A stretch of 64,000 nt of DNA from Xylographa opegraphella (lineage: Eukaryota). The notes under the pieces were generated by a model. That model worked only from the letters and a program-made list of their open reading frames with translations, had not been told where the DNA came from and searched no databases. Location of the stretch: NCBI GenBank assembly GCA_022813865.1, contig JALDZX010000003.1:496001-560000 (forward strand), in the 5' to 3' direction. Position numbers and translations under genes: made by a program. Position 1 is the stretch's first letter; every line of letters begins with the position of its first letter. Below, in pieces: positions 41,392 to 62,095 of this stretch.

Positions 41392-42357
41392 ATGACCCCA
41401 ATCAAGAAATTAACATCACGAAAGCGGTCCGGAGCAGGCTGCCAGCACTCCTTTATCGCTACAATTCTTGCAAGTAACAACAAGAAGCTTTGTGGTAGAC
41501 TTGATGAGATCATCGAACTCCTCGAAGTGACAGCTTCCGCTGTAGCTTCAAAGAAAGAAGGCAGCAATGTGACCCAGGCAGCTGTCTCAACAACACCGCA
41601 AACAGCCACGGTAGACTGGGATAAGGTCAAAGGCTTAACCACTTCTTGCTCGCTGCAATCCGAGATTGCACCTCCAGAGGCAAACTCGCAGCCTCAGTCC
41701 CGATTTATGTGGCTATCACAAGAATTGCGAAACCAAGTCTATGAATTGGTGCTGGTGTCCTCCGGACCCATCATCGAGCCCCACAGGCAGATGAGCGAAA
41801 AACGGGACGATGCCACAACACGTATCGGGGACATCAATTCGTCCCTCGTCATGACATGCCGACTGATTTATGCGGAAGCAATGCCTGTTTTGTATGGTAC
41901 ACTCAACACCTTCCAATTTACGCATCCCACAAATATTAGATTGTTCAGTACTGCCGAGGGTCGTCGCCCTGCAGATTATATCCAGCGCGTTGCTCTCGTA
42001 CTTTCCAAACCATATCTCCAAGGATTCAAAGGACGGGCAGCTGAAGCCAAGGATTGGGTTGATTCGCTTTTCTCGATGTTCAATACGGAGAGAATGTTAC
42101 TACCGCGATTAGAGGAACTGGAATTGGATCTTACGTCATGGAAAATGCAACTTGGTGATGCATTTCCGCCCAGCTTGGTCAAAGGACTCAAGAAGAGAGG
42201 ATGGAAGGTTCGGAAGCTGGTGCTTCGTGGGCTCGAGGATCAGCCCGTTTTCAAAGAGCTCTTGGAGCAAACACTTCTCCGGACCCCGCGGGCGAGGTTG
42301 CTGACGGACGAAAATGACCAGGTGCTGGAGGTCGTTAACAGCTCTTCTTTAATTTGA
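41392..42357 (+). CDS. Hypothetical protein with a fungal F-box-like motif
   Basis: Intronless 321-aa ORF. FMWLSQELRNQVYELVL and LVMTCRLIYAEAMPVLYG match the FLxLPxELRxxIY / LLxTCRxIYxEAxxxLY pattern of fast-evolving ascomycete proteins. Confidence 0.7.
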   Translation: MTPIKKLTSRKRSGAGCQHSFIATILASNNKKLCGRLDEIIELLEVTASAVASKKEGSNVTQAAVSTTPQTATVDWDKVKGLTTSCSLQSEIAPPEANSQPQSRFMWLSQELRNQVYELVLVSSGPIIEPHRQMSEKRDDATTRIGDINSSLVMTCRLIYAEAMPVLYGTLNTFQFTHPTNIRLFSTAEGRRPADYIQRVALVLSKPYLQGFKGRAAEAKDWVDSLFSMFNTERMLLPRLEELELDLTSWKMQLGDAFPPSLVKGLKKRGWKVRKLVLRGLEDQPVFKELLEQTLLRTPRARLLTDENDQVLEVVNSSSLI

Positions 42358-43233: not shown

Positions 43234-44345
43234 TCAAAATTTGACACTGTTATCCGGAAATGCGTCGACTGGATTGATTTCAGTGCAGTGTCCTAAGTAA
43301 GGATTATCAAGGACGTATCCGGCCTGCTTCTGGGCAGCAAGCGACCATCCCCGAATATCTTTCTCGGTCCACCTCAAGAACTGATTCTCCTGAATAGAAA
43401 TCAGCGAGCAAGCTCAGTGACCCTTAAGACGGCCACGATACTCATTGATGCTGATGACTACGTGAGATTGAGCGATCGAAAACCATGGTACTGACCTCTG
43501 GCCGCAAGTATGAACGGCAATAGAAAAAGCCATGCACGGATCTACTTTGAGCCGTCGTGTTCGCTCCTCCTGCATGAACTGTCGAGCCCAGGAACAAGAA
43601 CGCTTCGCCCACGCCCATTTCGACAGCTTCGGCCTCATGTGCCTTCGGGCGCCGTGTGTCGTCCCACAAGTGAGAGCCAGGTACGACCTGATGGGGATTT
43701 CAGCGTCCGCACCGAGCAGCGTTTTGAGGCGATACCTCGGTGAGAAGTAGTCTTACCAGCGTGGCTCCATTTGCAGCTATAGTCTTGACACCAGGGACAA
43801 GCAGGCCCATGGCGACGTCGGAACCCACTCTATAAGTTGCCCCGTCCTCGGCTTTATGCGTCTGCTGCCAGATGAAGTCGTCACGATGTAAATCCTGAGC
43901 TTTGACGCCAGGGCTGATATCCAAGGTCGCCGAAGCAGAGAGAATGGCATCGGAGACCAACTCTGTTCCATTAGCATCGTTGTACGGTACCGAGACGGTG
44001 CGGAGAAAGTGGTTAATAATTCTGAGCAAGTTCGGTTGTTGTAGCCAGACCTCTCGCGCTGTTGTACTTCGACCGAAGAGCAGCGTGCATCGACTCGTCT
44101 CTCGAGGAAGAGAGCGTGATTTCCGCTGGCCAACGGTATTAGCTACGCAGAGGCGGAAGGGGATATGGGGAAAATGAAGCAATCGGATTTACATCGTTAA
44201 TGATGGCATCAATGAAGGGAGCAGCATCGGCATTGACGCGCAGAACCTCTTCTATGCTCGAAAAGCCGGTTAAAATGACACCGCCGTCTTCCTGGATGAT
44301 TTTAATTGCGGCATTTGGCTCGTCCAGGGGAACACGGCGTATCAT
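43234..44345 (-). CDS. Fe(II)/2OG dioxygenase, phytanoyl-CoA dioxygenase (PhyH) family; 4 exons
   Basis: IIQEDGGVILTGF, QDLHRDD (HxD), ANGATLV.PG, FLGSTVHAGG (distal His) and YLRPEENQFL, typical of fungal PhyH-type tailoring oxygenases. Confidence 0.88.
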
Positions 44346-44872
44346 TTGTGCTATTTTTTCTGATCAGGTTACGCAGTGGTTATTGACCTGTATTTTCGCT
44401 GGAATAGCTGTGAAGTATATACTGGAACATACAGTTTATGCTGTGGTCTAAATATACACGTGTGTTCGATCATCGCCCATAGTTCGGGAAATTATACCAA
44501 AGCAGTGCCAGCTTGTTTACTTTTAGCAGCTGTTAAATAACGCAGCATTACATGAAGCTTATTCTCTTCACCTGAGTCAAGATCGCCTTCCCCCAGTATG
44601 ATATTCAAGTCGCTGACCCTTTCTCAGGTTGCAATGTCCGCGGCTGTTAACATTAAGCTTCGGCTCTGTGGTCAGTCGATTTCCCGAGTGCCGACACAAT
44701 TCAGACTCAGACATCTCCTCAAAGGCTCCACTCGACCACAGCAGCTACAGAAGGCGTTGTTTAAGACACAAGGGGCGTGTGGTAAAAAGTTAAGTGCAAT
44801 TCAGGATACTGATACGTAAGATATTAACTTTATCACTAGATATGTGAATGCTAACCAATGATATCTTAAATT

Positions 44873-45634
44873 TCAATCAGTAGTCTTCGCCAAAGTAATG
44901 GGCAGGCTAAATGTCTCTGGTTTTTCCCAGTAATACAAATCCGAATCTGGGTTCTTGGTGGCGGAAATGTGGTTGGGAACCTTGGTCGCCCAGAGCTGAG
45001 ATTCCGTCTCCGTGGCCTCTAGCTCTGGCGCCGCGCACTGCAGGAAAGAGATGATGGCAACACGAGGATTGTAACAATCCTCGTTGTAACCCTTCCAGGT
45101 GAAATCATCGAAGACCAGCGTACCCCGCACGTCCAGCATTCGCCAGCTGAGGACCGCGTCATGCAGGACATCCAGAGATACATGAGAAGCGTCGATGTAA
45201 ATGAAGTCAAATCGGGCACCCTCAGTCCGTAGCTGGATCAGGGCGTCATCACTCGTGGCTTTGATGACTCGAAGTTTCGAGGCGTGCTCGCATTGGGAAA
45301 CGTTGAAGCGGAATCGACTTTCGAGGGAGGCAAGCCCATAGGCACCGGTGTCGTCGGCCTGGTGCTCCATGCCACCGGCGAAGGTGTCGACGGCGGTCAT
45401 AGTGGAATCTGGATGGCTCATCAGGTTCTCCAAGATCCAAGTGGTTGAAGCGCCTTCGAAGGAGCCAATCTCCAAGATACGAAGCTGACGGCCGCGAAGA
45501 GGTGCCGTGAGCTTCTCCCAGTCTGGGCGAATCAATTCGAACCAGGAATGTTGGAAGTTGAAGCGGCTCGATTGAGAGGCGGATTGAGAGGTGGGGTGGG
45601 TTGCACTCGCCTGTAGATCTGCATTGGAGGTCAT
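44873..45634 (-). CDS. Class I SAM-dependent methyltransferase (Methyltransf_24-like), intronless
   Basis: ILEIGSFEGAST (motif I), AVDTF, FDFIYIDASH and GTLVFDDF. The first ATG is at 45634. Confidence 0.85.
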   Translation of the reverse strand: MTSNADLQASATHPTSQSASQSSRFNFQHSWFELIRPDWEKLTAPLRGRQLRILEIGSFEGASTTWILENLMSHPDSTMTAVDTFAGGMEHQADDTGAYGLASLESRFRFNVSQCEHASKLRVIKATSDDALIQLRTEGARFDFIYIDASHVSLDVLHDAVLSWRMLDVRGTLVFDDFTWKGYNEDCYNPRVAIISFLQCAAPELEATETESQLWATKVPNHISATKNPDSDLYYWEKPETFSLPITLAKTTD

Positions 45635-45680
45635 GTTGCAGGCTTGGAGGTGATCGCCGAGGAAGCATGGGGATGAATGG

Positions 45681-45718
45681 AAAAGCAGCAAAAGCAGCAA
45701 AAGCAGCAAAAGCAGCAA
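45681..45718. repeat. (AAAAGCAGC)x4 short tandem repeat just upstream of the methyltransferase ATG
   Basis: Four perfect 9-bp units are directly visible. Confidence 0.9.
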
Positions 45719-46450
45719 TGATATTTGGCTTTCATCAGGGTGAGTCTAGGTCTCCGAGATCTACTCTGGTGTTTTTCTAGTGGCACGCCCGGCGTTGGTG
45801 AGGTTCGATTGATGTAACCCAGCCTCGACGCTGATAAGCAAACGCTGCATCCGTATACACGTAATATGCATTATTACCTAAAGGAAAGTGGAAATCCCGA
45901 GGCGGGAGAAGGGGAATTGCGAGTCCAATGCAGATTTGTTACAATTCGATACGGAATACCGTATGAAAAGCTCCCAAGATAGTGCCAATGCAAGAAATCA
46001 GGCAGGGAGCGGGAGAGAGTGCTCTAGAACACCCCTGCACACCTAGTCCCGGGTAAAGTGCATGGATAATCCTAGGATAGCCTGCCTAATCTGATCGGAG
46101 GTGCATATGCACGCTAATGCATGGCGGGAGGCACGGAAGGGCCGGCAATGTAAAATACGAAACCAGTAATCTGACGGAAAAATACGAACTCTCCTAGGCT
46201 CAATCTCAACGTCGGCTGCACGTCGTCTCTGCTGTTCCCCTTCATGGATGAACACGATGGAGTCATTCTGCAGAGGGAAGCGCTTAAGGAAGGTTCAATG
46301 CTTGCTCCCAATCTTCCACGTCTCTGTCTCTCAAGCTTCTTTCCTCTGCTTTCACCGCGCGTCCATTGATTGTCCTTTCCCCTCCACACTCCCCTTCCCA
46401 CTCACTGCAGTGTCGCATTTGCAGTCAGCCCTTCTGACGAATCTTTTATT

Positions 46451-48563
46451 ATGTCTCCTCTGCCTTGTACCACCGAGCTTCATCATGGTGCATACAAGAT
46501 TCACAGCTATGCACCGACACCCCCTCTCGAGAGCTTCGACCCTCGGACCGTAAAATATTCCAATCTTATCACTTGGTGTTTATGGTTGTCGTATACCCTC
46601 TTTCAGGTGAACCTCGCCCGGATTCTCCAGAATGAGACCCTGTATTTCATGTGGCGCATGTGGGTTTGTTTGTCGGCCGAAATATGTCTGTCGTTTCAGG
46701 GATTCGTCCTAGCTCTTAATCTGATCTTAATCCAATTTTCTGTAAACGATACCCGAAGCCGCCCATGCTATCGGTTGATCAATGAGTCGGCTCCTACAAT
46801 CGATATTCTTGTCACGTGCTGTGGAGAACCCTTGGATGTCATTGCCGACACTGTTGCAGCAGCAGCCACACAGGATTATCCTTCACAGCAGTTTCGCATC
46901 TTCATTCTGGACGATGGGCGCAGTGATCAGCTTCAAGAGGCTGTAAAGCTATGGAATAAAAAGTCTAACGATAACAACGGTCCCCAGATCCATTATTTCT
47001 CCAGGAAGCTGAGAGCAGGCATTAAATCTTATTTCAAAGCAGGAAATCTTCGCCATGGCATTGAAGAAACAAAGTCCCGAGGAGGGTCTGAATTCCTCGC
47101 ATCTCTCGATGCCGATATGCTTCCGGAGCCCGACTGGTTGCGAAGAATGGTCCCTCATTTGATCCTCGATGACGGCCTGGCTATGGCATGCCCTCCACAG
47201 GTGTTCAATCCCACGTCGATGTCCAGGAATATCTGGCTGACTCGAATTGCAGTACTACTACAACCTCCCAGATGACGACCCCTTGGGCCAGCAAACCGAT
47301 TTCCATATCTGGTTCACAATATTCGAACCGTTAAACGATCGTTTAGACGCAGCGATGTGCACAGGGACCGGTTTCGTCGTCCGCCGGAGTGCTCTCGAGC
47401 AGATCGGTGGCTGGCCTTTCGCGGAAGCCGCCGAGGATTTTATGTGTTCTACGACCTTGAACAATGCGGGTTGGAAGGTTGCGTTCGTTGGCGAAGCCTT
47501 GCAGCACGGCCTTGCCCCGGAATCCATGCACGCACACGTGAAGCAGAAACAACGCTGGGTACGGCAGCCCTCCTGTCCGCGATGGCCACAGGTAGCACAA
47601 TTGACGGTGCACAGGTCGATGGCGGTATTGAAGTGCACAAAAGGTTCGGATTTTATCTGCCCGGCTTCTCCGAAATGACTTCTCAGATGACATGGGGCCA
47701 GCGAGCCGTCGGGATCTCGATGGCCCTGCGGGAATACGCTCCAATCACGAACGTGTTATCCTTGATCCTGCTGCCGATAGCCATCGCTCCCTCCCGAAGT
47801 GACCAGGCCAGCCTCGTAGCCGAGCACCTCTCCTCCTGGTTCTGGCTGCGCGCCGTTTTCGCAGCGTCTTTCTTATGCCATAAGCTCAATGACTTCCTCC
47901 TTTACGGCCACATCGGGCTCCGCCGTCTCGCCAACCTTAGAAGCATGGATATCTGGTGCGCACCCTGTAAGTCACCTTCGAAGGAACAATCATCCCTTCA
48001 CCACTTCCAGCTCCTTTCCCTCTCCTCTCCGAAGCTCAATTCAAATACGACCCCTAACCTAACGTCATCGCCGGCTCCCAGACTCCGCCACCCGCTGCCT
48101 GCGCTCTCTCCTTCCCCCCGCCCTCAACCCCCTCGCCTTTGAGTCCACCGGCTCAGCGCTCAACCCCGTCAACGAGCGCTCGCAAACCCACCGCATTCCC
48201 CTCCCGCAGCGCCTGCTCAGTCCCGATCTGCTGCTCTACCTCCTCTACAGCGCGTACACTACCGTTCCCCTACTACTACGCCTGCGTTCCGACCTTCTGT
48301 GCCCCACAACTCCTTCCCTGGCGCCCGGCCCTGGCGCCGTCCTCGTGCTTCTCCGCTGCGTCTGGCAGGCGTCGTTGCCGCTGAGATACATGCTTGCGCC
48401 GCCGACGGTGCCGCCAAGGGAGGAGCTGCTCGAGGCGGATGGGAGGGGCGGCAGGCGGCCGAGGAAGAGGATGGGAGTCGGGGTGGAGGTGGAAACGGGA
48501 TCGCCGATCGGGTGGGTGGATCTACTGGAAGGGGTGGTGGTGGCGCTGTATTGTATCCGCTGA
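46451..48563 (+). CDS. Membrane-embedded family 2 glycosyltransferase, cellulose-synthase-like; 4 exons (~46451-47200, 47253-47558, 47615-47967, 48082-48563)
   Basis: D,D,D,QxxRW signature ILDDG, KAGNL, LDADM, AEDF and QKQRW. N- and C-terminal TM segments; the exon frames join cleanly. Confidence 0.88.
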
Positions 48564-48962
48564 AGTGGGGGTGGACCGGGGTTTGGAGGGTGTGGGTGGA
48601 GAAAGCTGAGGGAAGTAGGAAAGAGTGAAATGATGTGGGTTTGCTATGCCTTGAAAATCACTGGCCATGGATGATTACGTGTCTGTATCGCAGTGAGCGA
48701 CATATGTATTTTTGTTTTAAGATATTGAGATGGCGAGGAAAGGATGCTATGACTGAACAAAGCCGTGAAACGGCCACAAGTCGATAGACGAAAGATGTGA
48801 TATTGAAGCCAAACTGCATAAGCAACCAAGCAAAAGTCGTGAATCTCTCCACATTATCCAAAAACACGGTTCCTACACGACTCGACCGCCCCCTGTCGTT
48901 TAGTCGTTCCATCGTTTGATAAATGCTACTTCATCCCACACTCACGTCTTCTCGGCTCACAT

Positions 48963-51900
48963 TCACTGGTCCACCCCCACCCCCGCCCCTCTCCCCGGCC
49001 GCGGCAGGAAGCCAATCTCGATCAGATACTCCACATTCCGCTTCACCACACGCATCATCTCCGCCTCGCCCTCCATGTCCCACCACTTCTCCACCTCCAC
49101 CCCGACCTGGCCGCCATCCCGCTCCAGGACATGCAGCATCGGGAACAGGCCATGGGCCTCGCGCCTCTCGCCGACGCGGGCCCGCAGGCGCTCCATCCAC
49201 GCCTCGTACGGCAGCGGCTCGAGCGCGTAGCCGAACTCGTCGCTCAGCAACGCCCACACGCGGGCGAAGGGGAGGCCGTCGAGGACGCGGTCGACGTGGG
49301 GGGCTGCGGCGCCAGCGCTCGGCCAGAGAGCCGCGACAGCGCGGCGCGCTACGCGTCCGACGTCGGCGACGAACAGCCAGTGCGAGGCCTCGGTGGCGTT
49401 GTAGGCGCCGATGTCGATGCAGGCGGCGACGAGGCGCCAGAGGAAGTCGCGCGTAAGGGCGACGCCGGCGGAGGCGGTGCCAATGATGTAACCCGGCTTG
49501 AGGGTGCTGAGGCGGGTGTGCTGAAAGGCAGGGTGTGGGACGCAGGCGCGCACGAGCTGCTCGGATACCGCTTTGCTGAAGGCGTAGCCGTCGGCGGGGT
49601 GGGGGTCGCTGGCCGAAGGTCGGGGTCCAGCGGGGGATGAGGTCCCGGAGCTGGAGTGGTTGGGTTTCTGGCCGCCGGAGACGTAAACAAACGCGGATAT
49701 AGTGGGCGAGAGCGCGGCGGTGCGCAGCAGCTCGAGGGTGGGCGAGACATTGAGTGGTTTGAGAGTTTCGTATGCGGAGCTGTAATGCACGCGGGCGCCG
49801 TTATGAATGATAGCGTGTATGCAGTGACTGTTCGGACTGCCAACACCACGGAGAAGTGATAGTTGCTGGGTGTTGAGGCCTAGGTCGGATTTTGTGAAGT
49901 CGCCCTTCCAGACTTTGATTCTGGTGCGGAAGGTATCTTGCCACCAGCCACTTTTGACAGCTGCATCTACGATACGTCGAAAGCCAATGGGCTCTGTAAA
50001 ACATCGCACGAGGGCAAATGCGTGAACGTTCGGTCTTTCAATCAGATGCTGTAGAATCGCAGAACCGAGGTAGCCGGAGGCGCCTGTGAGAAAGACATTC
50101 TGTATCGGTATCTTTTTTTGCAAGCCGGTATTCGGACTTTGAGCCTTGATGTCTCTAAACAATCCCTCGCTCAGATGTTCGACCTCCTGGCGTAAATCAA
50201 CCTTTACAGTCTCGTTAAAGCACATCCATGGTTGATCTGCATGATCGACCAGGTGTGCCAAGTCCCTAATGCTGACCTGTGGACTCAGTAGTACATCCAT
50301 AGGAACCTTCACGCCGTGTTCTTTCTGCAGAAACATTGACAAGGAGATGATCTGAATGGAATCTATTCCGGCCGACTGGAGCTTGAAATCGTGCTTTGCA
50401 AGCATTTCCCGCTTCACAACATCGTTGAAAGCCACAAGTTCTGCCACCTTGAGGCTCAGCTCGTTTGCTGTGACTTCTGTGGCATCCAGCTTGGAAGTCT
50501 TGAGATCAAGCATCGTAGTATAAGCTATCTTGGAAGGTCTCGATTCCATGTTCACAAGCCATTCGTTGATGGATTTCCGATCAATTTTCAGCGAGGGAAC
50601 GAACGGCATCCTTTCAATCACGAGACACGCTGTGGGAATCATGTACCCTGGTAAACTCTGCCCGAGGTGCTCCCATAGGTCTTCGATGGATAGAGATTGA
50701 TCCGGAGCCAGGGAAATAGGCTCATGCAAAATCCTCGATGGATTGGACTCCGAGTTCTGCATCTGTACTACAGCAACTAGCTCTTCAGCAAAGCACCCTT
50801 GTTTGGGTCGGATCACGATCGATTTCGCAATTCCTGGAATCCGCCTAACATGGTGTTCTATCTCACCGGGCTCGATTCGTTGTCCCCGAAGTTTGATCTG
50901 ACTATCTTTTCTTCCTACAAAATCGTACGAGCCGTCGAATGAGCTAGTGTTGATTCTGAGGAGATCTCCTGTGAGATAAAACCGTTGGCACTTCAAACGC
51001 AGTTCACGCGCCCACGAAAGATGCTCGAGAAAGGATGACCGGGTCTTGGCTTCATCATTCAGATATCCGCGTGCCAAACTTGGTCCTGCCACTACTAACT
51101 CGCCCACAGCACCGATTGGAACAAGGCGCTGCGGATCATCTGGATCCACCAGCCAACATAAAGAGTTGTGTAATGTATATCCGACGGTTTCTGGGAGAGT
51201 CTGGCTTGGATGCATATGCAACATCAAGCAAATACCAACCTCGGCAGGCCCATAGATTTGGATAAGCGAGACTTTCGTCGCCCATCTCTCAATGTGATCT
51301 TGCGGTAGAGCCTCACCGCCAATAGCGAGTGTTCGTAGTGACGGGACCGTGGAGGGCTCAATCAGCCCTGCGAAAGACGGTGTTAAAATCGCAAAGTCGG
51401 CTTTCATACTATTGATTACACCAACTATGTTGCTGCGGCGGTCTTCTTCTGACGGTATGCATATGACTCCACCAAAAATTAACGTTGTGAAAATATCTAT
51501 GATTGCTACATCGAATGTGTGAGCAGCGAACTGTAGAACTCGTGCCCCGTGGTAACCCATTGCCTCCCCGTGCGTTATGGCATGGGTGCAGATGGCGCCA
51601 TGCTCATGGATCATTCCTTTCGGTTTTCCAGTTGAGCCAGACGTAAACAAAACAAATATAGGATCGTGGGGAGTAGTGTCAATGGAAGTAAAATCATGTG
51701 CCTTGTGAGATTGAAGTTTGTTGACCGTTGTGGCTGAAATTGTCACAACACGTTTTACCAAGCCAACGAGAGTTGATGCGAACATGTCAGAGGTAACAAT
51801 CACAGTTGCTTGAAGACTGTTCAAGATCTCTTCGATCCGTGACCTTGGATGTGCAGGATCAAGAGGAACGAAAGCACCTCCTGCCTTCAAGATTGCTAGT

Positions 51901-53063
51901 GTGGCAATGACGGTCCAAAGGCTTTTCTCGTACATGAATGGTACAAACATTCCAGGGACCACGCCAGCTTGTATCAAGTGCTTTGCAGCGATCGATGAAA
52001 ATTGGTTCAATTGGGTATAGGTCAAAGAGCCGTCCCACGCACAGATAGCCTCGGAGTCTGGTATAGCCCGAATAGTTGCTTCGACAAGATGATGCATGCA
52101 GCTCATCTGAGCGTACGGATCCTTGGGATTCCATGATATCATTCTTTGCTTATCTTCCTCGCTGACTGAATCAAGCTGGCCGACTGTGCATTCATTTTCA
52201 AAGACTAAGCCGCTCATGATCTTCCGGAATGTACTGGCCACAGCGTGGGCATATGGTTTGGAGATTGCTGGCCACTTATAGCCGATTGTAACATCGATCA
52301 ATGATTGAGTCGCATTGTAATTCAATATGAGATCGAACTGCTGAGATAAAGATTAGCCGAAGCAGTAAAAGTGATAACGAACGAGACTCGTCAGTGATTT
52401 TTTCATGTGCCTTCGTATGTAAGTTTGCATATTCGACGAGATCAATATAGACGATATAGTGCTGTGTTACTGATAATCGATTTTGGCCAAATTAGGACAA
52501 ATATTACAAAGCAATTCGGTGAATTTCACGATAACTGACTTCAGAAAAGCGAGCTGATTTACCGATTGAGAACTCGTAAGTCGCTCGTGACTTGTATATG
52601 GCCCCTCCGTAGTTGATGAGGGAAAGCTCAACAAGTTTACTGCCGTGTTGATATTTGACGCCTTCAAGGTTGGCTCAGTAGATCTCCAAGAGGCAGCTAC
52701 ACGAATATCTTTCAACCGACACTCGTCTGTACACTGAAATAGGACCACCGAGACCCCGGTGCCTTCACTAAGCGGTACTCCATTGGCACTTCTTTGGTCG
52801 GAATAGAGAGCCTGATCTCCAGAAATAACGGCGAATGCAACAGAGCCATTTCGCAAGTAGGTCCGCAGCAAAAGAGCCCAGGCGGCCAGCACCAAATCTT
52901 TCGATGACTCGAAGCCCTTCCCCAAAGCGGGCAAGGTTGCACCGTCAGGGAATGCAGAGACAACGTCGTAAGTGCGATCCTCGATGTTTCTCTGCGAAGA
53001 GATGGGGAAGCGGCAGTGCTGAAGGCTGAGTTCCTCTGAAAGGTCCTCTGGAGCTGAGCCCAT
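48963..53063 (-). CDS. NRPS-like enzyme: degenerate N-terminal C-domain fragment, then A-T-R (thioester reductase)
   Basis: A-domain cores LTYTQL, LKAGGAFVPLD, FTSGSTGKPKG, FDV, YGPAE, GELVVAGPSLARGYL, YLTGD and GRKDSQIKLRGQRIE. T motif GIDS. R domain FLTGASGYLG and YAFSK. The upstream exon has LAAWALLLRTY. Splicing at ~52340-52545 is uncertain. Confidence 0.92.
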
Positions 53064-54010
53064 AGCTAGAGTTGATTGATAAGCTGATCAGCAGTAAACT
53101 TGCACGTACATCCATGAGAATGAATAGATACCAGTTTGGAACTAGCGAGATACAAGAGTCACTTGATTTGCTCAGCCGCTGAAGCGTCGTCGGATGTACG
53201 CATGTACACGGCGTATATGACAAAAGTATACATGACTTCCGGGCCAATTGAGGCATGAGAATCGTGGAGCCGAGTTTGAAAACAGATGAGGTGTGATGGT
53301 CGGCACCTGAACCCGGTGCAGGATCCACCCGAGTCAGAGTTCTGCATCCTGTTCACATCCAGATCATCCACCGCAATTGGACCTACTATAGTGCATTGAT
53401 GCACGCCACGCGAATGCGCATGATGAATTTGGAGATGTCGATGTGGTACGGAAACGCCAGGGTTAGCTTGGCGCATACCTTCGACGCAGATACGGGCTAA
53501 GGTAGTTCAGCCGGATTTCCGAGCCAAGATTTAGCGATCTTTCGTTCGGCGGCTAATGCAGCTAAATCTGTACGCCGATCTGGTCAAGGGGGCTCCCATC
53601 TGGCCTTGGGACTCCAGACCAAAACCCTGCAGGATTGGACAATAATACCGTACCGTACCGTAATGACAGGGTAGCGTGGATTGCCCTCATCTGCATGGGG
53701 TGGGCTCCATGGTCACGGAGGGCTTGATGGCGATCTCCGAATTTGTCTGAGAGCGAATATTCGATGTAACTCTCGACGAATAACCGTACCGAAGATGTGC
53801 TGATACGTACTGTTCTGCAACCGACCCCTTGGCTGAAGGAAAAGATCGTTGGCAGAGCCATCGGATAGAGAGGGTAAATAAATATACGTATGAATATATA
53901 TGTATATATATATCTCTCCTTTCCTACAAGAGAGCCACCATGACAAAAAGGTTTCCCTGCCACGCTTCCTTCCCATTTTCTGGCAGCATCCACGGTGTTA
54001 GTGATTGCCC

Positions 54011-55128
54011 ATGGCTCATTCCACGCTTGACCTCTCACTGTTCACCCATGGCGACGAAGCGGAACGCCACCAACTTGCTTTGAGCCTCGTCGAGAGCCTG
54101 TCTCGAGATGGCTTCGTAGTTCTTGTAAACCACGGCATCTCAGACCTCACCGTGGAAAAGCTGTTTGAATGGGTATGTGGTGGATCATTTTGCCTTTGCA
54201 GAAGCTAAGTCGGCTAACTTCAAGCCTTGTCGTGAAACGCAGAGCAAGTCTTTCTTCCGGTTGAAGTTGGATGACAAGGCTTCCATCGCACACCATCCTG
54301 GCCCTAATCCTCAACGAGGTTGGAGTGGGGTCGGTGCCGAGAACAGTTCTGCGCTGTATCGAAAAGGACTGCTGAAGTCCACAACTGTGGAGGACCTCAA
54401 AGATGCGAGGGTAAGTACGAAGCAAAACCACCACACAATGGGGTGTATTGACGTAAGAGGAACACTTCGATATCGGATCGACGGCAGACCTTCAGTACCC
54501 CAACAAATGGCCCGACGAGAAGGAGCTTCCCGGCTTCCGTCACCAGATCGAGGCTGCATTCGAGGCGTTGGAAGCAGTAAGCGCGCACATCATGAAAGCC
54601 CTTGAGGTCGCCTTTGGGTTGCCGAAGGGCGCCTTCCTAGACAAGATGACCCACACAGCCAACGCGAGTGAGATGCGACTAAACCATTATCCGGCCATCG
54701 ACATCGAGGAAATCAGAGCCGGCGGCGTGAGTCGAATCTGGCCTCATTTCGACCTGGGTGTGATCACTCTTCTTTTCCAAGACCGAGTCGGTGGGCTCGA
54801 GTTTGAGGACCGCAAGAACCGTGGAACATTCACACGTCTCGAGTGCTGTGGCTCATCTGAGATGGTTGTCAATGTGAGCGAGACACTGCAACGGTGGACC
54901 AACGATGTTCTGGCGGCAGGCCTGCACCGAGTCAACATCCCCCGGCAGATGGAGGACAAGGAGACGGCCGTGCTTCCCGAAAGATACTCAATCGCTTACT
55001 TCTGTAAGGCCGACCGCGATGCCTCCGTGGGGCCTTTGCAGCAATTCGTGCATGAAGGTGCGGATCCAGTTTATCAGGACATGCCGGCCATTGAGTATCA
55101 TCGGCAGAGGTTGCAATCTGCGTACTAG
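54011..55128 (+). CDS. Fe(II)/2OG oxygenase, IPNS/DIOX family; 3 exons
   Basis: LDLSLF..GFVVLVNHGI (DIOX_N), PQRGWS, RLNHYP, HFD, TLLFQD..GGLE, GLHRV and RYS. Confidence 0.9.
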
Positions 55129-55492
55129 CGTTCACGAGCGTGCTCGAACTCGGAATGATAAAGCTGATTGTTCGAGGCTTCGTTCCATACCACCTTGACC
55201 GTGATCGATAGTAATACTTCGTAGCTATCAAGAAACATGCGGGACTTTTCACACGAGTGAACGTGGTTGTTGAGTGCTACGCAGTAAATCGACCCCTGCC
55301 CGATGACCCAATGACGTACTACGTACTCCGTAGAGATAGTCAAGTGCCTCCGATTGCAGCCCAAACCCCGCCATGATTCCGATTCATGGGGGCCATTTCC
55401 CAAGGACTATTTACTATGTATATGCCCCTGAGTCTTGACCACCCACCCACAACCCCTTATTATTCAGAACTCCCCCAATTCAAGCACCCACT

Positions 55493-56544
55493 ATGTCAAA
55501 CCAACCCCCCACCAGCCCCACCAACCCCCCACCCCCACCCATCTCCCTTGCCATCATCGGCTGCGGTGCGCCGTGCCCCGCCCAATTCAGACCGGCCCCC
55601 TAATTGACCACCCCATAACAGGCAAACTGGGCACCTCCCTGCTGCTCGGCCTCCTCGGCCCCGCCCACGACCCTATCCCCACCCTCACCATCGCCGACAT
55701 ATTCATTACCGCATCCGTATCCAGCACGTCTCGCCTCCGACAAGCCCTCCCTTCCCGAGCCCCCTCTCACCCCTCGATCTCCATTCTCCCGCTCACAGCC
55801 AACGGCTTCGCTGCCCAAGTCGCCGACGTCGTGATCCTTGCCTGCCCACCTTCCACCCACAGCTCCGTTCTCCAGGATCCGGCCGTACGCCAGGGCCTGC
55901 TGGACCACGGGCGGCAGGGGACGACCAAAAGCAAGGTGCTGATCAGCCTGCTGGGCGGGGTACGTATCGCCCAGCTGGAGCGTAGCCTGTACACGCCCCT
56001 GAATGCCGCCCTGCCGGCCCCCTCGGGAACCGGGCGCGCTCGCTGTGCCATCGTGCGTGCGGTGCCGAACATCGCCGCGCGGCAGCAGCAGTCGGTGACG
56101 ATCCTCTCAACGACGACCACCAATGATGACAATAACAACGCCGACGACCCAAATGCTATCGTGGCGGCCTTGTTCGCACGCGTGGGCGTCGTCCGCTGTC
56201 TGCCGGAAGCGCAGCTGGCGCGAGCGTCGGCGCTCGCGGCATCCGGGGTGGCATTCTACGCACATCTGATGAAGGCGGCAGCGAAGGGGGTCGAAGGGGG
56301 TGAGGACGGCTTGGCGGCGGACGACGCCATATGGGTGGCGGCACACGCGGCACGAGGCGCAGCGGCACTGGTGCTGGCGGGGGACACGCCGGAGGGAGTG
56401 GTGCGAGCGGTGGCGACGGAGAAGGGGAGCACGGCGGCGGGGTTGAAGGTGCTGGCGCAGATGGGGGCAGGGGAGGCGCTGCGGGCGGCCGTTGCGGAGT
56501 GTGGGCGGGTGACGAACGGGTTGGGTGGTGGGAGGGAGAAATAA
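55493..56544 (+). CDS. Pyrroline-5-carboxylate reductase-like protein (divergent); intron 55566-55621
   Basis: LAIIGCG|KLG Rossmann motif, ADVVILAC, LISLLGGV, IVRAVPN, ALAASG and VATEKGSTAAGL correspond to P5CR motifs. Confidence 0.8.
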
Positions 56545-56712
56545 GTGGAAATGAACATGATTGTAAGATTGAGTGCGAATTCTGAGGCTCCTGCGGTACC
56601 TTTGCCTCCTTATTATAGAGACAATGATGAAAAAATGAGTGGAGTTTTGGACGCATAGTTTGTAGATTTGATTCTAATCCGCAGGGCGATTCTGTAGTTC
56701 TGGCGATGTTTT

Positions 56713-58166
56713 TTATTTCGTCGCATCCAGGACAACTTTGATGACTTCGCGTCGTTCGAACATGGTGTACCCTTTCGGCGCCTCGCTCAGCGGCATTACA
56801 TTTTCGGTCATAAATTCCAGAAGGTGCTGCTTCTGCACAAACAGGCGAACAGACTCTGCGAAAACTGATCGCACGGGGCAGCGACCCATCTGCAGGCGAA
56901 GATTCTTAGAGTACGCTATCGTAGAAAATCAGTTCTTCGGTTCTAGCGTTATAGCAGCGGGGTGGTGATTGTAGAGCATGGACGAGAACTCTGAAGCAGG
57001 AGGATAGGATCAATTCGCGGGATCACGCTTACCTTCTGTCAGCGTCCACGGAGTATCTTCGCTGTGTACACCCGCACTGACTAGAACACCGCCGGGCCTC
57101 AGGAGATCAAAGCCGGTCCGCAGCGCGTCCTTGCGGCCCACCAGCTCCATGACTACGTCTGCGCCCCTGCCTTGTGTAGCCTGAAATATCCGCTCAGCCA
57201 CATTGTCTGATCCGGCGCTTGTGTTCAGTGGGATGGCACCTAGGGCCTGTGCTTTAGCAAGGCGGGCGGGCACGCTGTCGATTGCGTAGAGATGCTGAGG
57301 ACTATAGGTGGAGGCAGTGGTTATAGCGCACAGTCCCACGGGGCCACAGCCTACGACCACGGCCGTGATACCTGCAGGAGGGAAAGAAAGTCGAAGAAGT
57401 GAGAAAGCAGAGCTGGCAGCGAAGTACTGGCAAGATCAAACTCAGTATCCCAGATCACAACCTGTCAAAATGGTATGGCTGACGAGGAATGGGCGTGTGA
57501 ACAGATGGGAAATCAGCTGACCACGAGCGAGAAAGCAACGAAGAGTTACTCACTCCTGTTGGGAAGATATCAGCCATTAGAACAAGGCTTTCGGCACTGA
57601 GCCCCGCGGGAGCCTTGAAGACGGTAGTATCCGCGAGCGGAACTCGTACATATTCCGCTTGGGCCCCTGGCAGTTGGGGCGAGCCAAACACGAGGCATTC
57701 TGTACACCGACTTGAAAGGTTTGCTCGACAATAATGGCAGACGCCGCTGTGGCAAATATCAAAAGGAATGCCACCGTAGGTAGAATAGCACCATGGGCGT
57801 GCAGGGGTCAAGGGCAAAGTAGAAAGCCATACCAGCTAACAGTAAAGGGGCTTACAACAAGATCTCCCAACTCCAAACCTTCGACGTCGTCGCCCTTCTC
57901 AACCACAGTGCCGCAGAACTCATGACCCATGATGGTGCCCTCAGGACAGGCTTCATACCCCCGGAGCAGATGGAGATCACTGTGGAGTGAGTATCAACAG
58001 CAATACTCATTTATGTCATATGTTTTATCACCAACCTTCCACACAGTGCTGTGTACCGCACTCGTAGCACGACGTCTTTTGTACTCTGTACATGTGGGAC
58101 CGGGCGTTTTTCCACGGCTACCTTTCCTGGACCGTGGAATATTACGGCGTTCATCGTGTTTTCCAT
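56713..58166 (-). CDS. Zn-dependent medium-chain dehydrogenase (FDH-like MDR); 5 exons
   Basis: TALCG|SDLH, MGHEF, the structural-Zn motif CGVCHYC...SSRC, QAEYVRVP, ADIFPTG|YFAA and VGCGPVG. Confidence 0.9.
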
Positions 58167-58596
58167 ACGTGGTGACTGAGAATCGAAAGACGATTCACTT
58201 TGAAAATATTGACTGAGGCCTTTCTCCATGCACAGGTAGTAAGTTGTAACGAAGGGTACTGTTCAATTGCGAGGTCTTTTTTCCATAATCAAGAGCTTTT
58301 GTATTGGTGAGAAACATGATGGGGTATGTAAGATATGAATGCATATACGCCATGTGGAAGCCTTGATTCGACCTTGTGCTGGTCATGATGCTGGCACGAT
58401 AACCTTCACGCCATAATTTCAACAATTTGTCTGTTTTCGTTACACAACGTTGGCAAGGGAAAGTGTCGGCCCGATTACCGAAGTATTGATCACGTATTTT
58501 AAAATTATGCAAGTGAATAATTTGACCAACAGGCGAACAGCGGTAGCTAGTCCGAGCTAGTCTGGTCTATTCTACTTTACCGAGCCGAGTACCCAA

Positions 58597-60193
58597 TTAA
58601 GCCTGGGCGTTAGTCTCGTTCCTGATTCCCGGCTTACGATTTCTACCATACAAATGTCCTCCTGTAACCATTACCGTCAAGCCCAACAATATCAATGTCA
58701 ACACACCCATGACAAGCGACATTGCCGCCCAGCCAAATTGAGCTCGAATAAAGCCAGCGTACAACGGGCCAAGCATCGAACCCCCGGCAAATGCAAAACT
58801 CAGGAGACCATACGCTTGAGCGTTGGCCCCGTAGGGGCCAAAGACCCCAGGAGTTTCTTTTTCTATCTCATTGACCACCGTAGCGGTTTCCTTAATGAAG
58901 GCGGGGTTCAATAAAGTGACCGAAACGCCCACGGAGAACATCATGAGTCCGAGTTTCACAAATGGCGAGGTCACGCCGTGGTGGATCAGCCGCAAGAGAA
59001 TGAGAGTCGGCGCCAGCAGTGAGAGCCCGCTTGCTGCTGTCAGCTTCGTGCCGAATCGATCAGTGAGCGCTCCAGATATCGGCGAGAGAAGCGCCGGGAG
59101 CGCTAATATTAAAAACAAGCCAGCGGCATTCGTAGCGCTGAATCCGAAGGTGTCGTGAACATATACGGCCAGAACACCGTCAAAGCCTGCGGTGAAACTA
59201 TTTACCATAAACAATGACAGGATTGCAAGCAAAAACCGGGACGACGAGAGTAAAATCAACATGGACGACCCTCCCGACCTTGATCGTACCTTGGGGAGAA
59301 GCGGTTTTGTCTCTGGGTCATCATAAGACTCGCCACCATCGGCGCGAGGAAATCGAGTACTTTCTTCTCCAATGTTACTTTCTTGGGCAAGAGACCCCTC
59401 GCAGTCGGTGGCGTAAATAGTTCCAATTTCTTCCACCGAGGGCGACCGCAAGTCTGAAGAGTCCGCGAGATCTGATTCGAAAGGTAAACGCTTTTCGACA
59501 ATAACCATGAAACGCAAACCGATGTCGACAACAATCAAAACAAAGGCCGGGATAAACACCGCAAAGTAGCCGGCGTGGTCGTATATGAAACCGCCGGCCA
59601 CCGGGCCTGAAAGGATACCCAGAGTTATGCTCATGCTGGTATATCCCGAAGCCTTTCCGATCCCATCCTTCCCAACAACATCGAGGACCAGCGCATTGCC
59701 AATGGTAAAAACCACCGCCGTTGACAGCCCTTGTAAGAGCCGTGCGAGGAGTAGAACAGGCACCGTGGTTCCGAGAGCAAAGCATAGGGTAGAGGACCCC
59801 AGGATCACCAACCCGAGCACGAACGGTATCTGTCGACTCGAGCTCCGATCTCCTATCCATCCAAAGAACACTAAGAGTTCCATTGCGTTAGCGATGATAC
59901 TTTGGTATATTCTGCCATCGGCACTGCCGCCGACGTCGCTGAAAGCCGGAAAGCATCAACTATATTGACCGAAAGTGCAACATACACGACCCAAGCATCT
60001 GAGCCGTCCCAAAGGAGGCTAGCAGAATCGAGTTCCATCGCTGCACGTCCTCTTGTGCGAGTCCAACCCGGTCCGCGAGAGCGTAGGGGAGCACGGGGAG
60101 GATGAGGTTCGCCAGACCCATGTCGGTGAACATGGCCACGCACACCACGAAGGTGAAGAAGCCTTTGGACGCCCGTGACTTGCGGGCGAGCAT
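58597..60193 (-). CDS. MFS transporter, DHA1/vesicular-amine-transporter-like; 2 exons
   Basis: AMFTD..LILPVLPY, GWIGDRSSSRQ (motif A), LARLLQGLS and GALTDRFG; about 12 TM helices. Confidence 0.88.
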
Positions 60194-60727
60194 GGTGTTG
60201 ACAGGAGGGTGGGTGAGGGGTGGGTGATACAGGCAGTCGTCTGATCAGGCGGCGACTCTTTATGGTCGACAAAGGACACTCCCTCGATAACTCGAAAGGT
60301 GTGTGATCGACTTAGCCCTCGCAGACCTTGGAATAAATACTGCGTCACCATTTTCTTCGCAAGCATGTTTGAATGCGTGCCGAGAAAGACCGTGGATCGC
60401 CACTGTGACTTTATTTTTCAGTTGGGACGAATCAGATTCCTTATCCTACGTGTGCTACCCAGATTGGAATTGGAACCAAAACCTATGAGGTAAAGGCTGC
60501 TGCATCTCGGATTTGCGGGAGAGTTAACAATTACTAGTATCGAGCTAAAGGGTCTATTTTTTGCACTCAAGTCATCCGTGGCTTATCATTACTTCGACTT
60601 CTGATCTCTTGGCTGCAAATCATCACGCATAGTTTGGTTTTCATTAGAAATATCAACTGCAATTTGTGTGTCGACCATTTACTCTAGAGTTGCTGGACCA
60701 GCTTGTTCGCCAACTAGGGAACACTTA

Positions 60728-62095
60728 TCATTCATGCTTGGTCTCATCATTGTCTCTCATAAGCGCCTCCGCCTTGAGTTGAAATTCGCGGAAAAGCTCG
60801 ATGGCCTAGAGTTTTTTATCAGGAACGCACGCCTTTACATAAAGTAAGAGTGATTGTATACCTGTTTGGTCTTGACTTGCCCCTTGCCGCTGTCTCTGTT
60901 GGCAAATGCTTCTCGGTACTTCTCTTCGTCGTCCATGAAGCTTGTGCGCTGCATGCTTTGCGCACTGTAGATTTTATTGTTGAACAGCGACCGCTCCGCT
61001 ACCATTTTTTCAAGCTCTTTGGTCTCTGACAGGGCCCGCAGGAGCGACGGAGCAATCGTGAAGGCGGCCACACCGGCAAGTTGCATGATTTCATCGACGG
61101 AGATGACACTGCAGGCCTTCACTCGAGTAGGGTACGAGTATTGCTCAAAGTATTGCTGCGCATCGACACATAAGGCTAAAATTGGATCTGTGTCCCGATA
61201 TCTGCGTAATTGAGCTTCCTGAATACTGAAAGGTTGCCACTTCATCAACTTACGTTTCGTCGAAATGGACCCTGAGCTCGTGCACGAACGGCGAGATAGA
61301 GATACAGCCTACTTCGGCCGCGAGCATTGCTTGCTCAATAGTGAATAACGTCGTTGCTAGAGTTTTAATACCCAGCAATTTCAATTTGCGGCAGGCCTGA
61401 AGACCCTCCCAGGTAGACGCGACCTTGATGCAAAGTCTGGATACATCGAAATTGGGTTCGATTCGGCGGCAAAGACTATAAATACCTGCGGTTTACGGAG
61501 ATACTATCAGTCTCATTATGACGATCGTGCGCCTTGAAGCAACGTACGTTGACCATTCTCGACGATTTTGATGGTCGAATCGGAATACACCGGATTCGCC
61601 ATGACAAGTATGTTGCCGGTAATCAGGGATGCAATCGTCAATGACAGGCTAACCATCTGCGAGATCCTTCAGCGAATGTTTACCGATGTCGATCCGAAAT
61701 GGGCGGGGCAAGAACACACGGAGATCTCCATGGCCAGCTCCTCGAAAGTCACATTGGCGTACTCTGACTGGAACTTTCGTCCAAGAGCAACGGAACTTCT
61801 CAGTAAAGCGGCGCGTTGAGGGTTGAGAAGTTCGTAGTAAGCATCGGCCTGGGTGGCGTCAACGACGAATTTGGGATTGAAGGAGACCAGGTACCTGATT
61901 AGAAGTGCAATCGACAAACGGCCCGAACTCAGTAGCAACTGATGATACGCGTCTGTCAGCGCTCGACTTTGTTTATGCTTGAGGCGAAAACCACATCGTA
62001 CTTTGAATGTTCAGGCTATCACAGTCCACCTGAGTTTTCGAGCGGAGATATTCCAAAAGGACGACGGGAGACGTTGAATCTGACAAGGAGCCCAT
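60728..62095 (-). CDS. Transaldolase-family protein (divergent paralogue); ~7 exons
   Basis: The spliced product has VDCD, DCTSNQ, CIKVASTWEG (Schiff-base Lys), TTLFTIEQA, ISPFV and FTIAPSLL. Confidence 0.82.

Follow-up and report, generated by a model that had tools for sequence, protein, structure and literature searches.

A putative biosynthetic cluster centered on an NRPS-like adenylation-thiolation-reductase enzyme, with a probable methylproline-type module and a remodeled transaldolase-like protein, in Xylographa opegraphella

The stretch of DNA analyzed here (hereafter the window) comprises 64,000 nucleotides of contig JALDZX010000003.1 of Xylographa opegraphella, and its segment from 43234 to 62095 is occupied by nine intact intron-bearing genes, delineated by a combination of Pfam searches, hand-built exon models and motif reading. 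The sequences of these genes and the recurrence of their neighborhood in other genomes argue that they very probably constitute a genuine conserved biosynthetic cluster. Its central component is an enzyme related to nonribosomal peptide synthetases (NRPS-like) in which adenylation (A), thiolation (T) and reductase (R) domains are combined. In order, the genes encode a PhyH-family Fe(II)/2-oxoglutarate (2OG) dioxygenase (minus strand), a methyltransferase (MT, minus), a family 2 glycosyltransferase (GT2, plus), the NRPS-like reductase (minus), a second Fe(II)/2OG oxygenase resembling UcsF (plus), a reductase of the pyrroline-5-carboxylate reductase (P5CR) family (plus), a zinc-dependent medium-chain dehydrogenase (MDR, minus), a transporter of the major facilitator superfamily (MFS, minus) and a transaldolase (TAL)-like protein (minus). 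The limits of the locus are exact gene limits, as the PhyH stop codon ends at 43234 and the ATG of the TAL-like gene has its A at 62095. This strand pattern leaves two divergent promoter regions, as defined by the gene starts, one of which lies between the MT and GT2 genes (45638-46450) and the other between the NRPS-like and 2OG oxygenase genes (53064-54010); both divergent pairs had been anticipated by the first-pass annotation of this DNA.

Pfam scans were run on 39 stop-to-stop open reading frame (ORF) translations from 42.9-63.9 kb, of which 12 recovered matches, together covering eight of the nine genes. The families recovered were Methyltransf_24, Glycos_transf_2/Glyco_trans_2_3, AMP-binding with PP-binding and NAD_binding_4, DIOX_N/2OG-FeII_Oxy, P5CR_dimer, ADH_zinc_N/ADH_N, MFS_1 and TAL_FSA. 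The ninth gene, that of the PhyH protein, has four short exons and was missed in this exon-wise scan, while a scan of the whole protein (P0128) recovered PF05721 with an E-value of 3e-19. The nine genes are thereby found at the coordinates, in the order and with the families originally assigned to them. Three-frame translations and GT-AG joins served to build the exon structures by hand, and the annotated proteins P0128 (PhyH), P0001 (NRPS-like) and P0121 (TAL-like) map to the window exon by exon. The introns of the window are short and of the GT-AG type, with sizes of 49-127 nt apart from an annotated 300-nt intron in the NRPS-like gene. The catalytic motifs quoted below follow the general definitions for each family, with the sequences themselves taken from the window translations.

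The NRPS-like gene (48963..53063, minus strand; exons 53063-52641 and 52340-48966, then the stop codon) encodes P0001, a protein of 1266 aa, whose open frame at 48966-52352 on the minus strand is 100% identical to the public entry annotated as a hypothetical protein of X. opegraphella. The architecture of the protein is C-remnant-A-T-R. The A domain is complete, being recovered by the Pfam AMP-binding model with an E-value of 1.7e-62 and by the NCBIfam model AA-adenyl-dom TIGR01733 with 350.2 bits against a cut-off of 317.4, and its core motifs A3, A7, A8 and A10 are readable as FTSGSTGKPKG, YLTGDL, GRKDSQIKLRGQRIE and SLKIDRK. It is followed by a carrier domain (PP-binding, 26.3 bits, cut-off 20.8), in which the phosphopantetheine-bearing serine lies in the motif GIDSIQ, and by an R domain that matches NAD_binding_4 with an E-value of 1.7e-32 (113 bits, cut-off 20.1) and scores 198.5 bits with TIGR01746, slightly below its cut-off of 213.35. 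The R domain displays both the GxxGxxG motif (TGASGYLGS) and the YxxxK motif (YAFSK). At the N-terminus, P0001 showed no Pfam Condensation match at E<=0.01 and no HHxxxDG motif in residues 1-250; similarity to condensation domains, namely those of LgrA, McyA, Txo1/2, SrfA-C and others, is confined to residues ~132-220, which match the end of these domains. Of the C*-A-T-R architecture initially proposed, the A, T and R domains are thus intact, whereas the 'C*' is, as judged from this alignment, a C-terminal remnant of a condensation domain.

The Lys2 equivalog model TIGR03443 aligns with P0001 over residues 133-1214 with a score of 290.5 bits against a cut-off of 1030.1, and by this measure the protein is not Lys2. 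The annotated 300-nt intron of its gene (52341-52640) is far longer than those of the neighboring genes, and the X. trunciseda orthologue P0002 retains ~30 extra residues at this point, which resemble the continuing open frame in the window. The junction of exons 1 and 2 is probably mis-annotated on these grounds of sequence, and no clean in-frame GT-AG alternative was found at 52341-52640.

The A domain displays a putative 10-residue specificity code, DVIIAGIICK, the positions of which were mapped by motif context and by the GrsA numbering. Of 25 family members, 15 share this code exactly, and nine of the remaining ten depart from it at one to three residues. Its aspartate presumably corresponds to the Asp235-type anchor of the alpha-amino group in GrsA. 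The putative pocket thus mapped has an Asp at the alpha-amino site and is otherwise entirely hydrophobic. Such conservation suggests that the family acts on a single conserved hydrophobic amino acid; the code would fit a hydrophobic amino or imino acid, without separating methylproline from Ile, Leu or Val.

Transcribed divergently from the NRPS-like gene is the gene for the UcsF-like Fe(II)/2OG oxygenase (54011..55128, plus strand; exons 54011-54172, 54243-54410 and 54460-55125, then the stop codon), which contains the DIOX_N and 2OG-FeII_Oxy domains in Pfam. The best solved relative of its third exon by a wide margin is UcsF (9ktp), with an E-value of 1.1e-64 and an end-to-end alignment in which 116 of 222 residues are identical by hand count (~52%, over the C-terminal 222 residues). 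The iron- and 2OG-binding residues of UcsF are retained, with the HxD...H (HFD...H) and RxS (RYS) motifs being identical in the two proteins. According to PMC8233208, UcsF converts L-Ile to (4S,5S)-4-methyl-pyrroline-5-carboxylate (4-methyl-P5C) with UcsG as the proposed reductase, DetxE, which is 42% identical to UcsF, catalyzes the same reaction, and ordinary P5C reductases complete the synthesis of (3S)-methylproline.

The P5CR-family gene (55493..56544, plus strand; exons 55493-55565 and 55622-56541, then the stop codon, separated by a 56-nt intron) begins 368 bp downstream of the 2OG oxygenase gene on the same strand and is recognized by both Pfam and NCBIfam. Its product matches P5CR_dimer with an E-value of 1.9e-13 (51 bits, cut-off 25) and carries the Rossmann GxGxxG motif as GCGKLG. 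The proC model TIGR00112 aligns over positions 7-260 of 263 (E-value 6e-34) with 117.9 bits against a cut-off of 196.75; these scores place the protein in the P5CR family but below the level set for ProC equivalogs. In the PDB search it was weakly related to solved P5CRs, and its own family is small (11 representatives at E<=1e-30 in a set of 1.84 billion). It also shows a Pro/Thr-rich N-terminus and a low-complexity insert, TTTTNDDNNNADD, neither of which is seen in canonical P5C reductases. Because a UcsF-like 2OG oxygenase is followed downstream by a P5CR-family reductase, the pair looks like a methylproline-type module with roles akin to those of UcsF and UcsG. The proposal of such a module in the first-pass annotation is backed by the 116/222 identity to UcsF, the adjoining P5CR-family gene and the reactions documented in PMC8233208.

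At the other end of the locus, the TAL-like gene (60728..62095, minus strand, 7 exons) encodes P0121, a protein of 341 aa that belongs to the TAL_FSA superfamily in Pfam and has a remodeled active site. It aligns over 250 residues with E. coli TalB (4rz5; E-value 8e-22) and scores 109.3 bits with the talAB model TIGR00874, the cut-off of which is 396.2. The active sites are compared by way of the TalB residues Lys132, Asp17, Asn35, Thr156, Ser176, Phe178, Glu96, Asn154, Arg181 and Arg228. The Schiff-base lysine, Lys132, is retained (IKVASTWEG as against IKLASTWQG in TalB) and is present in all five relatives that cover this site; the equivalents of Asp17, Asn35, Thr156, Ser176 and Phe178 are also kept. 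In contrast, Glu96 is replaced by Met and Asn154 by Leu, and the phosphate-binding Arg181 and Arg228 by Glu and Ile. The relatives share these replacements, namely those of Asn154 and Arg181 in 6/6 covering sequences, Glu96 to Met in 5/5 covering sequences and Arg228 to Ile in 7/7, including one from Aspergillus nanangensis. As Glu96, Asn154, Arg181 and Arg228 are all replaced and the score is 109 against 396, the protein is, from its sequence, a repurposed Schiff-base enzyme that has lost the usual grip on sugar phosphates and not a housekeeping or sugar-phosphate transaldolase. The Aspergillus relative is P0127, a 338-aa protein annotated as 'Transaldolase', which is 43% identical over the query exon and bears all four substitutions; the remodeled TAL-like enzyme therefore exists outside lichens. 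A mycosporine pathway, suggested by the combination of an O-methyltransferase with a sedoheptulose-linked TAL, was considered and rejected, as no DHQS-like or ATP-grasp gene was found and no Pfam match beyond the nine families occurred among the scanned ORFs.

The remaining genes include four that encode potential tailoring and export functions. The PhyH gene (43234..44345, minus strand; exons 44345-44193, 44125-43754, 43684-43496 and 43389-43237, then the stop codon) encodes P0128, a protein of 289 aa that retains the HxD...H motif. The sole solved relative recovered with its exon 2 is SwnH1 (9osa; E-value 8.6e-7). The MT gene (44873..45637, minus strand) is a single exon of 253 codons and a stop, specifying a class I S-adenosylmethionine-dependent enzyme similar to Methyltransf_24 and Methyltransf_3 (PF13578, E-value 8.5e-19; PF01596, E-value 9.8e-6), for which no relative was found in the PDB at E<=0.01. 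The MDR gene (56713..58166, minus strand) was assembled from five exons by splice joins and has an alternative ATG at 58229. Its product matches ADH_zinc_N with an E-value of 5.1e-17 together with ADH_N, possesses a GHE catalytic site and a CxxCxxCx7C structural site, and has zinc-dependent alcohol, butanediol, xylitol and sorbitol dehydrogenases as PDB relatives; by family it belongs to the zinc-dependent alcohol or polyol dehydrogenases. The MFS gene (58597..60193, minus strand; exons 60193-59986 and 59870-58600, then the stop codon) encodes a transporter similar to drug:H+ antiporters, which matches MFS_1 with an E-value of 3.4e-38 and the NCBIfam models for MFS multidrug efflux proteins.

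The GT2 gene (46451..48563, plus strand; exons 46451-47200, 47253-47558, 47615-47966 and 48082-48560, then the stop codon), whose start codon and last exon are placed by hand-made splice joins only, encodes a membrane protein of the processive type resembling BcsA and CelA. Its best PDB match is the cellulose synthase BcsA (4hg6, E-value 7.9e-11), and the NCBIfam CelA model TIGR03030 matches two exons with E-values of 1.4e-19 and 6.3e-14, the single-exon scores being 69.6 and 50.9 bits against a cut-off of 699. The protein contains the DxD (LDADM), ED (AAEDF) and QxxRW (KQKQRW) motifs, with membrane segments after the catalytic domain, and no PilZ match was recovered for it in the Pfam scan of the ORF translations. 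It is thus similar to BcsA in its catalytic domain and has the motifs and membrane segments of the processive synthases, from which it differs in falling far below the CelA cut-off, in the absence of a PilZ match, in lying inside a metabolite cluster and in sharing a promoter with the MT gene. In published work, fungal BcsA-like GT2s such as Tft1 and CelA are tied to mixed-linkage beta-1,3;1,4-glucan, which in lichens is lichenan. The GT2 could either glycosylate the cluster product or be an unrelated glucan synthase, and whatever its tie to the cluster, the gene at 46451-48563 may be regarded as a candidate for a lichenan synthase. The earlier assertion that none of the nine genes is a housekeeping orthologue holds for the P5CR-like, TAL-like and NRPS-like proteins, all of which score below the equivalog cut-offs, and is less secure for the GT2, as this protein may synthesize a glucan of the cell wall. 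A role of the GT2 and MT in making a lipo-chitooligosaccharide was also considered and rejected, as the NodC model (5.5e-5) lies far below the CelA model (1.4e-19).

Conservation of the locus was studied by reading synteny from the locus tags and contig sizes of protein-search matches, with equal contig size taken as a proxy for the same contig; absences from the NRPS-like and PhyH matches carry little weight. More than 100 relatives of the NRPS-like protein at 46-73% identity are present among the best 120 of 7860 significant matches, mostly from Lecanoromycetes, with some from Leotiomycetes and Xylaria. Stereocaulon, Lepraria, Cladonia and Hymenoscyphus are also among the genera represented in the searches with the NRPS-like, PhyH and TAL-like proteins. 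Exon 2 of the PhyH gene recovered 39 matches, and ten species besides X. opegraphella appear in both sets. The first-pass annotation had staked the cluster on its genes being kept together in other genomes, and such co-conservation is seen for several of them. In seven of the ten species, among them members of the Teloschistales, the PhyH and NRPS-like genes share a contig, and in six species their tags are one to four apart (X. trunciseda 007443/007447, Psora crenata 001484/001481, Letrouitia subvulpina 005057/005053, Gyalolechia fulgens 000698/000697, cf. Caloplaca sp. 3 001709/001707 and Xanthomendoza sp. 2 004072/004076). In the non-lichen Calycina marina both genes are on the same 20,820-bp contig, and one further pair occurs on contigs of equal size (12,213 bp). 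In Circinaria the two lie on two ~13-kb contigs, and the Gallowayella weberi matches come from two assemblies. In addition, two public gene models fuse an MT to the PhyH protein, and their N-terminal halves match the MT of the window at 83% identity in Circinaria and 68% in Gallowayella weberi; thus, the MT-PhyH pair is conserved in order and strand in these two genomes.

Searches with an exon of the TAL-like gene recovered seven matches, namely from Xylographa (two species), Circinaria, Lignoscripta, Aspergillus and two further records. Three of the six non-self matches share a contig with an NRPS-like match, the third by virtue of an equal contig size of 259,544 bp. The TAL-like gene lies three tags beyond the NRPS-like gene in X. 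trunciseda, and five tags beyond it in Circinaria, on a 13,279-bp contig that carries six tags and is about as long as the span from the NRPS-like to the TAL-like gene in the window (~13.1 kb). This suggests that the same four genes lie between them in Circinaria. The cluster is hence not peculiar to the genome of X. opegraphella. Its PhyH/MT/NRPS-like part occurs widely among lichen-forming fungi, and among the matches found, the TAL-like extension is seen in Xylographa, Circinaria, Lignoscripta and the two further records, with a lone homologue in Aspergillus. No relative was recovered in a single-protein metagenome scan; a metagenome scan with a generic A-domain motif returned 79 loci, which are unrelated NRPS genes of 26-39% identity with none orthologous, and was not used. 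In Psora crenata, the gene model P0136, located three tags away from the NRPS-like gene, joins a canonical 3,4-dihydroxy-2-butanone-4-phosphate synthase (PF00926) with the PhyH orthologue, and the synthase part may derive from a neighboring riboflavin gene or be another recruited sugar-phosphate-cleaving enzyme.

The above-described architectural and contextual observations uphold the original suggestion of a biosynthetic cluster around an A-T-R reductase, in view of the intact A, T and R motifs and the repeated co-location of the PhyH, MT (through the MT-PhyH pair), NRPS-like and TAL-like genes. The reading that we favor, at about even confidence, is that of a vertically conserved, uncharacterized secondary-metabolite cluster centered on the (C-remnant)-A-T-R enzyme, which would act by a methylproline-to-amino-aldehyde route. 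Its product is probably a small nitrogen-containing compound derived from a methylproline-type amino acid. The scheme takes its bearings from the gene content, the intact motifs, the UcsF-level similarity and the co-location that are observed at the locus, while its substrates, order of steps and product are proposed. The UcsF-like oxygenase would oxidize the delta-carbon of L-Ile or a similar aliphatic amino acid, which would cyclize to 4-methyl-pyrroline-5-carboxylate, and the P5CR-family reductase would turn this imine into a 3-methylproline-type imino acid. The A domain might then adenylate the product so formed, or a related hydrophobic amino or imino acid, and load it on the T domain, from which the R domain would release an amino aldehyde. 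As the one-module A-T-R protein is the sole assembly enzyme, reductive release of a single acid as the aldehyde is to be expected. The downstream roles are those expected of the respective families. The zinc alcohol dehydrogenase could reduce the aldehyde to an alcohol or act on a later carbonyl, the SwnH1-like PhyH protein could hydroxylate a saturated N-heterocycle, the Methyltransf_24 enzyme could methylate it, and the phosphate-blind TAL-like enzyme might, by Schiff-base chemistry, add or remove a carbon unit in the lineage of Xylographa and Circinaria; export by the MFS transporter would come last. The gene of the BcsA-like GT2 is located within the conserved block; its product may glycosylate the metabolite or be the unrelated glucan synthase considered above.

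A more specific, and decidedly unlikely, version of this scheme would have the cluster make an iminosugar of the hyacinthacine/alexine kind, a polyhydroxylated pyrrolizidine that mimics a sugar, by a route that is not known from nature. The A-T-R enzyme would free (3-methyl)prolinal, to which the TAL-like protein would add a dihydroxyacetone-type C3 unit by means of its lysine; the ring nitrogen would then close on the new ketone, the zinc alcohol dehydrogenase or the P5CR-like protein would reduce the iminium, and the SwnH1-like dioxygenase would hydroxylate the product. Fructose-6-phosphate aldolase (FSA) is used by chemists to make iminosugars, and iminosugar or polyol chemistry provides the nearest counterparts of three enzymes of the locus, namely those with the TAL/FSA fold, the polyol-type zinc dehydrogenase and SwnH1.

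Several observations weigh against the methylproline-to-amino-aldehyde route or the unity of the cluster. The putative code of the A domain is just as conserved in the distant members of the family from Teloschistales and Calycina, and if these have no UcsF/P5CR pair, the substrate is more likely to be a proteinogenic amino acid. Further, the code is unlike known proline codes. P0026, which apparently shares the 259,544-bp contig with a TAL-like gene, has the code DALLAAAICK, and it may be a paralogue with another substrate. In Puttea exsequens the PhyH and NRPS-like genes are on different large contigs, and the conservation of the 2OG oxygenase, P5CR-like, MDR, MFS and GT2 genes is deduced from tag spacing and contig size only. 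Small molecules are not usually tailored by a GT2 of the processive polysaccharide-synthase type. No pathway-specific regulator is present within the window, and no convincing common promoter motif was found in seven upstream regions, in which the best candidates were 7-mers occurring in four of the seven, a level expected by chance among many k-mers.

The alternative that survives best, although we consider it somewhat unlikely, is that the locus is a mosaic, in which the PhyH, MT and NRPS-like genes form an old unit, the right arm (2OG oxygenase, P5CR-like, MDR, MFS and TAL-like) was added in particular lineages or constitutes a second unit, and a bystander, the GT2, is a wall beta-glucan synthase of the Tft1/CelA kind. 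It would account for the contrast between the seven matches of the TAL-like gene and the relatives of the NRPS-like and PhyH proteins across many orders, and for a GT2 that has BcsA and CelA as its best relatives, with DxD, ED and QxxRW motifs, fungal Tft1/CelA being linked in the literature to mixed-linkage glucan. However, the three tags between the PhyH and NRPS-like genes in X. trunciseda, Letrouitia subvulpina and Xanthomendoza sp. 2 leave room for both the MT and the GT2, which moreover share a divergent promoter in the window. Likewise, the right arm is of equal size and gene count in Circinaria, and the search mode behind the few TAL-like matches makes them weak evidence of absence.

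The next alternative, which appears unlikely, concerns the substrate of the A-T-R enzyme, which could be a proteinogenic hydrophobic amino acid such as Ile, Leu or Val, with the resulting amino aldehyde dimerizing to a pyrazine, piperazine or pyrazinone that is then tailored by the oxygenases, reductases and MT. Amino-aldehyde dimerization has precedents in pathways of the AsaC, LnaA and HqlA type. A mono-modular A-T-R protein without a working condensation domain, a putative hydrophobic pocket with Asp at the alpha-amino position that is kept family-wide, and an NCBIfam match to the aureusimine synthetase AusA that takes in the R domain would all be compatible with it. Such a route, however, offers no role to the TAL-like enzyme, nor to a UcsF-level oxygenase and a P5CR-family reductase, whose only documented joint function is the formation of methylproline (PMC8233208).

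Still less probable, and in our view very unlikely, is a Lys2-like route, in which the A-T-R enzyme would reduce the distal carboxylate of an acidic amino acid, the P5CR-like protein would reduce the cyclized imine to a proline or pipecolate analogue, and the 2OG oxygenase and PhyH protein would hydroxylate it. The alignment with TIGR03443 over residues 133-1214 does include the N-terminal extension, a P5CR-family gene is nearby, and the PhyH protein resembles SwnH1 of the pipecolate-derived swainsonine pathway. Against this, the score of 290 bits with a cut-off of 1030 is no better than those of generic NRPS models, the putative pocket (as mapped by the GrsA numbering) is hydrophobic with nothing to receive a second carboxylate or amine, and the 2OG oxygenase is specifically UcsF-like and unlike known proline or pipecolate hydroxylases. 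That the nine genes are chance neighbors without a common function, as the lack of a regulator and of a common promoter word might be taken to indicate, is scarcely credible, given that the neighborhood repeats across orders and even classes (the PhyH and NRPS-like genes in 7/10 species, the MT and PhyH genes in 2 genomes, and the TAL-like and NRPS-like genes in 3/6 matches).

In terms of known systems, the favored methylproline-type reading is closest to UcsF and UcsG of UCS1025A biosynthesis, and to DetxE and the P5CR of destruxin/isaridin producers, with which the locus shares a ~52% UcsF-identical 2OG oxygenase followed by a P5CR-family gene. However, the methylproline feeds a polyketide synthase (PKS)-NRPS in the case of UCS1025A and a six-module NRPS in that of the destruxins, whereas the X. 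opegraphella locus has only a one-module A-T-R protein; no Pfam match to a ketosynthase (KS) or acyltransferase (AT) domain was found in the 39 ORF translations from 42.9-63.9 kb. Known enzymes with an A-T-R architecture include Lys2, the amino-acid reductases LnaA, HqlA and AsaC, and the aryl-acid carboxylic acid reductases. The NRPS-like protein resembles the stand-alone fungal A-T-R reductases (Lys2 and others) in this architecture, in its intact adenylation, carrier and NAD(P)H reductase motifs and in a Lys2-like N-terminal extension; it differs from them in lying far below the Lys2 cut-off and in having its own family (46-73% identity), its own putative code DVIIAGIICK and a different neighborhood. 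With the swainsonine (swn) cluster there is a weak similarity between SwnH1 and the PhyH protein, and the saturated bicyclic amine on which SwnH1 acts would fit an N-heterocyclic substrate, but no SwnK-type PKS-NRPS, SwnN/R or SwnA was found in the region by Pfam scans. Similarly, the TAL-like protein has its fold family and Schiff-base lysine in common with TalB and FSA, while four TalB residues are replaced. No described cluster with the same gene set was found in the open-access and bioRxiv literature, whether on this enzyme set, on NRPS-like clusters of lichens or on fungal clusters with transaldolase-like enzymes, in keeping with the earlier impression that the combination matches no characterized cluster. 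We regard the locus as an orphan cluster whose general kind is known but whose composition is unusual.

To our knowledge, lichen fungi are known almost wholly for polyketides, and as they are so hard to grow, there has been essentially no exploration of their nitrogen-containing metabolites and NRPS-like clusters. With nine genes in ~19 kb, the locus provides a compact target that can be expressed in another host. Secondary-metabolite clusters do not usually recur as widely as the PhyH/MT/NRPS-like part does, over several lichen orders and in a non-lichen relative, and a conserved role is thereby suggested. The arrangement would also pair a methylproline-making module with a reductive-release enzyme rather than with a peptide synthetase, and the TAL-like protein, with its phosphate-binding and acid/base residues replaced, is a candidate for a new biocatalyst of C-C bond formation. 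Were the product iminosugar-like, the cluster would reveal a new way in which a class of pharmacological interest is biosynthesized. Given how many lichen fungi have the PhyH/MT/NRPS-like part, related polar alkaloids could be widespread among lichens and have been overlooked.

On its left the locus is flanked, between 32.7 and 42.4 kb, by genes that Pfam identifies as Nic96, catalase, Rer1, enoyl-CoA hydratase and DUF7730 proteins, and for this part of the flank the description of the cluster as lying beside core genes is consistent with the matches. The DUF7730-domain gene (41383-42354, E-value 3.5e-9) is situated between the housekeeping block and the PhyH gene. The 1.9 kb of right flank in the window (62.1-64.0 kb) gave no Pfam match. 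In the public record the tags of the NRPS-like gene (ending in 000719) and the TAL-like gene (ending in 000723) leave three tags for the four intervening genes, and one of the 2OG oxygenase, P5CR-like, MDR and MFS genes is therefore probably unannotated or merged there. The base composition of the region is uneven, with GC-rich stretches at 48001-50000 (0.617) and 54001-58000 (0.565-0.574) as compared with ~0.48 elsewhere; these take in the 3' end of the GT2 gene, the part of the NRPS-like gene coding for the R domain, and the 2OG oxygenase, P5CR-like and MDR genes. This GC-rich DNA yields long spurious antisense frames without a family match, for example at 56159-56905 on the minus strand. 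Finally, a trinucleotide repeat at ~45640-45745, in the promoter region between the MT and GT2 genes, reads as a run of ~13 Leu in one frame and as repeated 'FAA' or 'FCC' in the other two.

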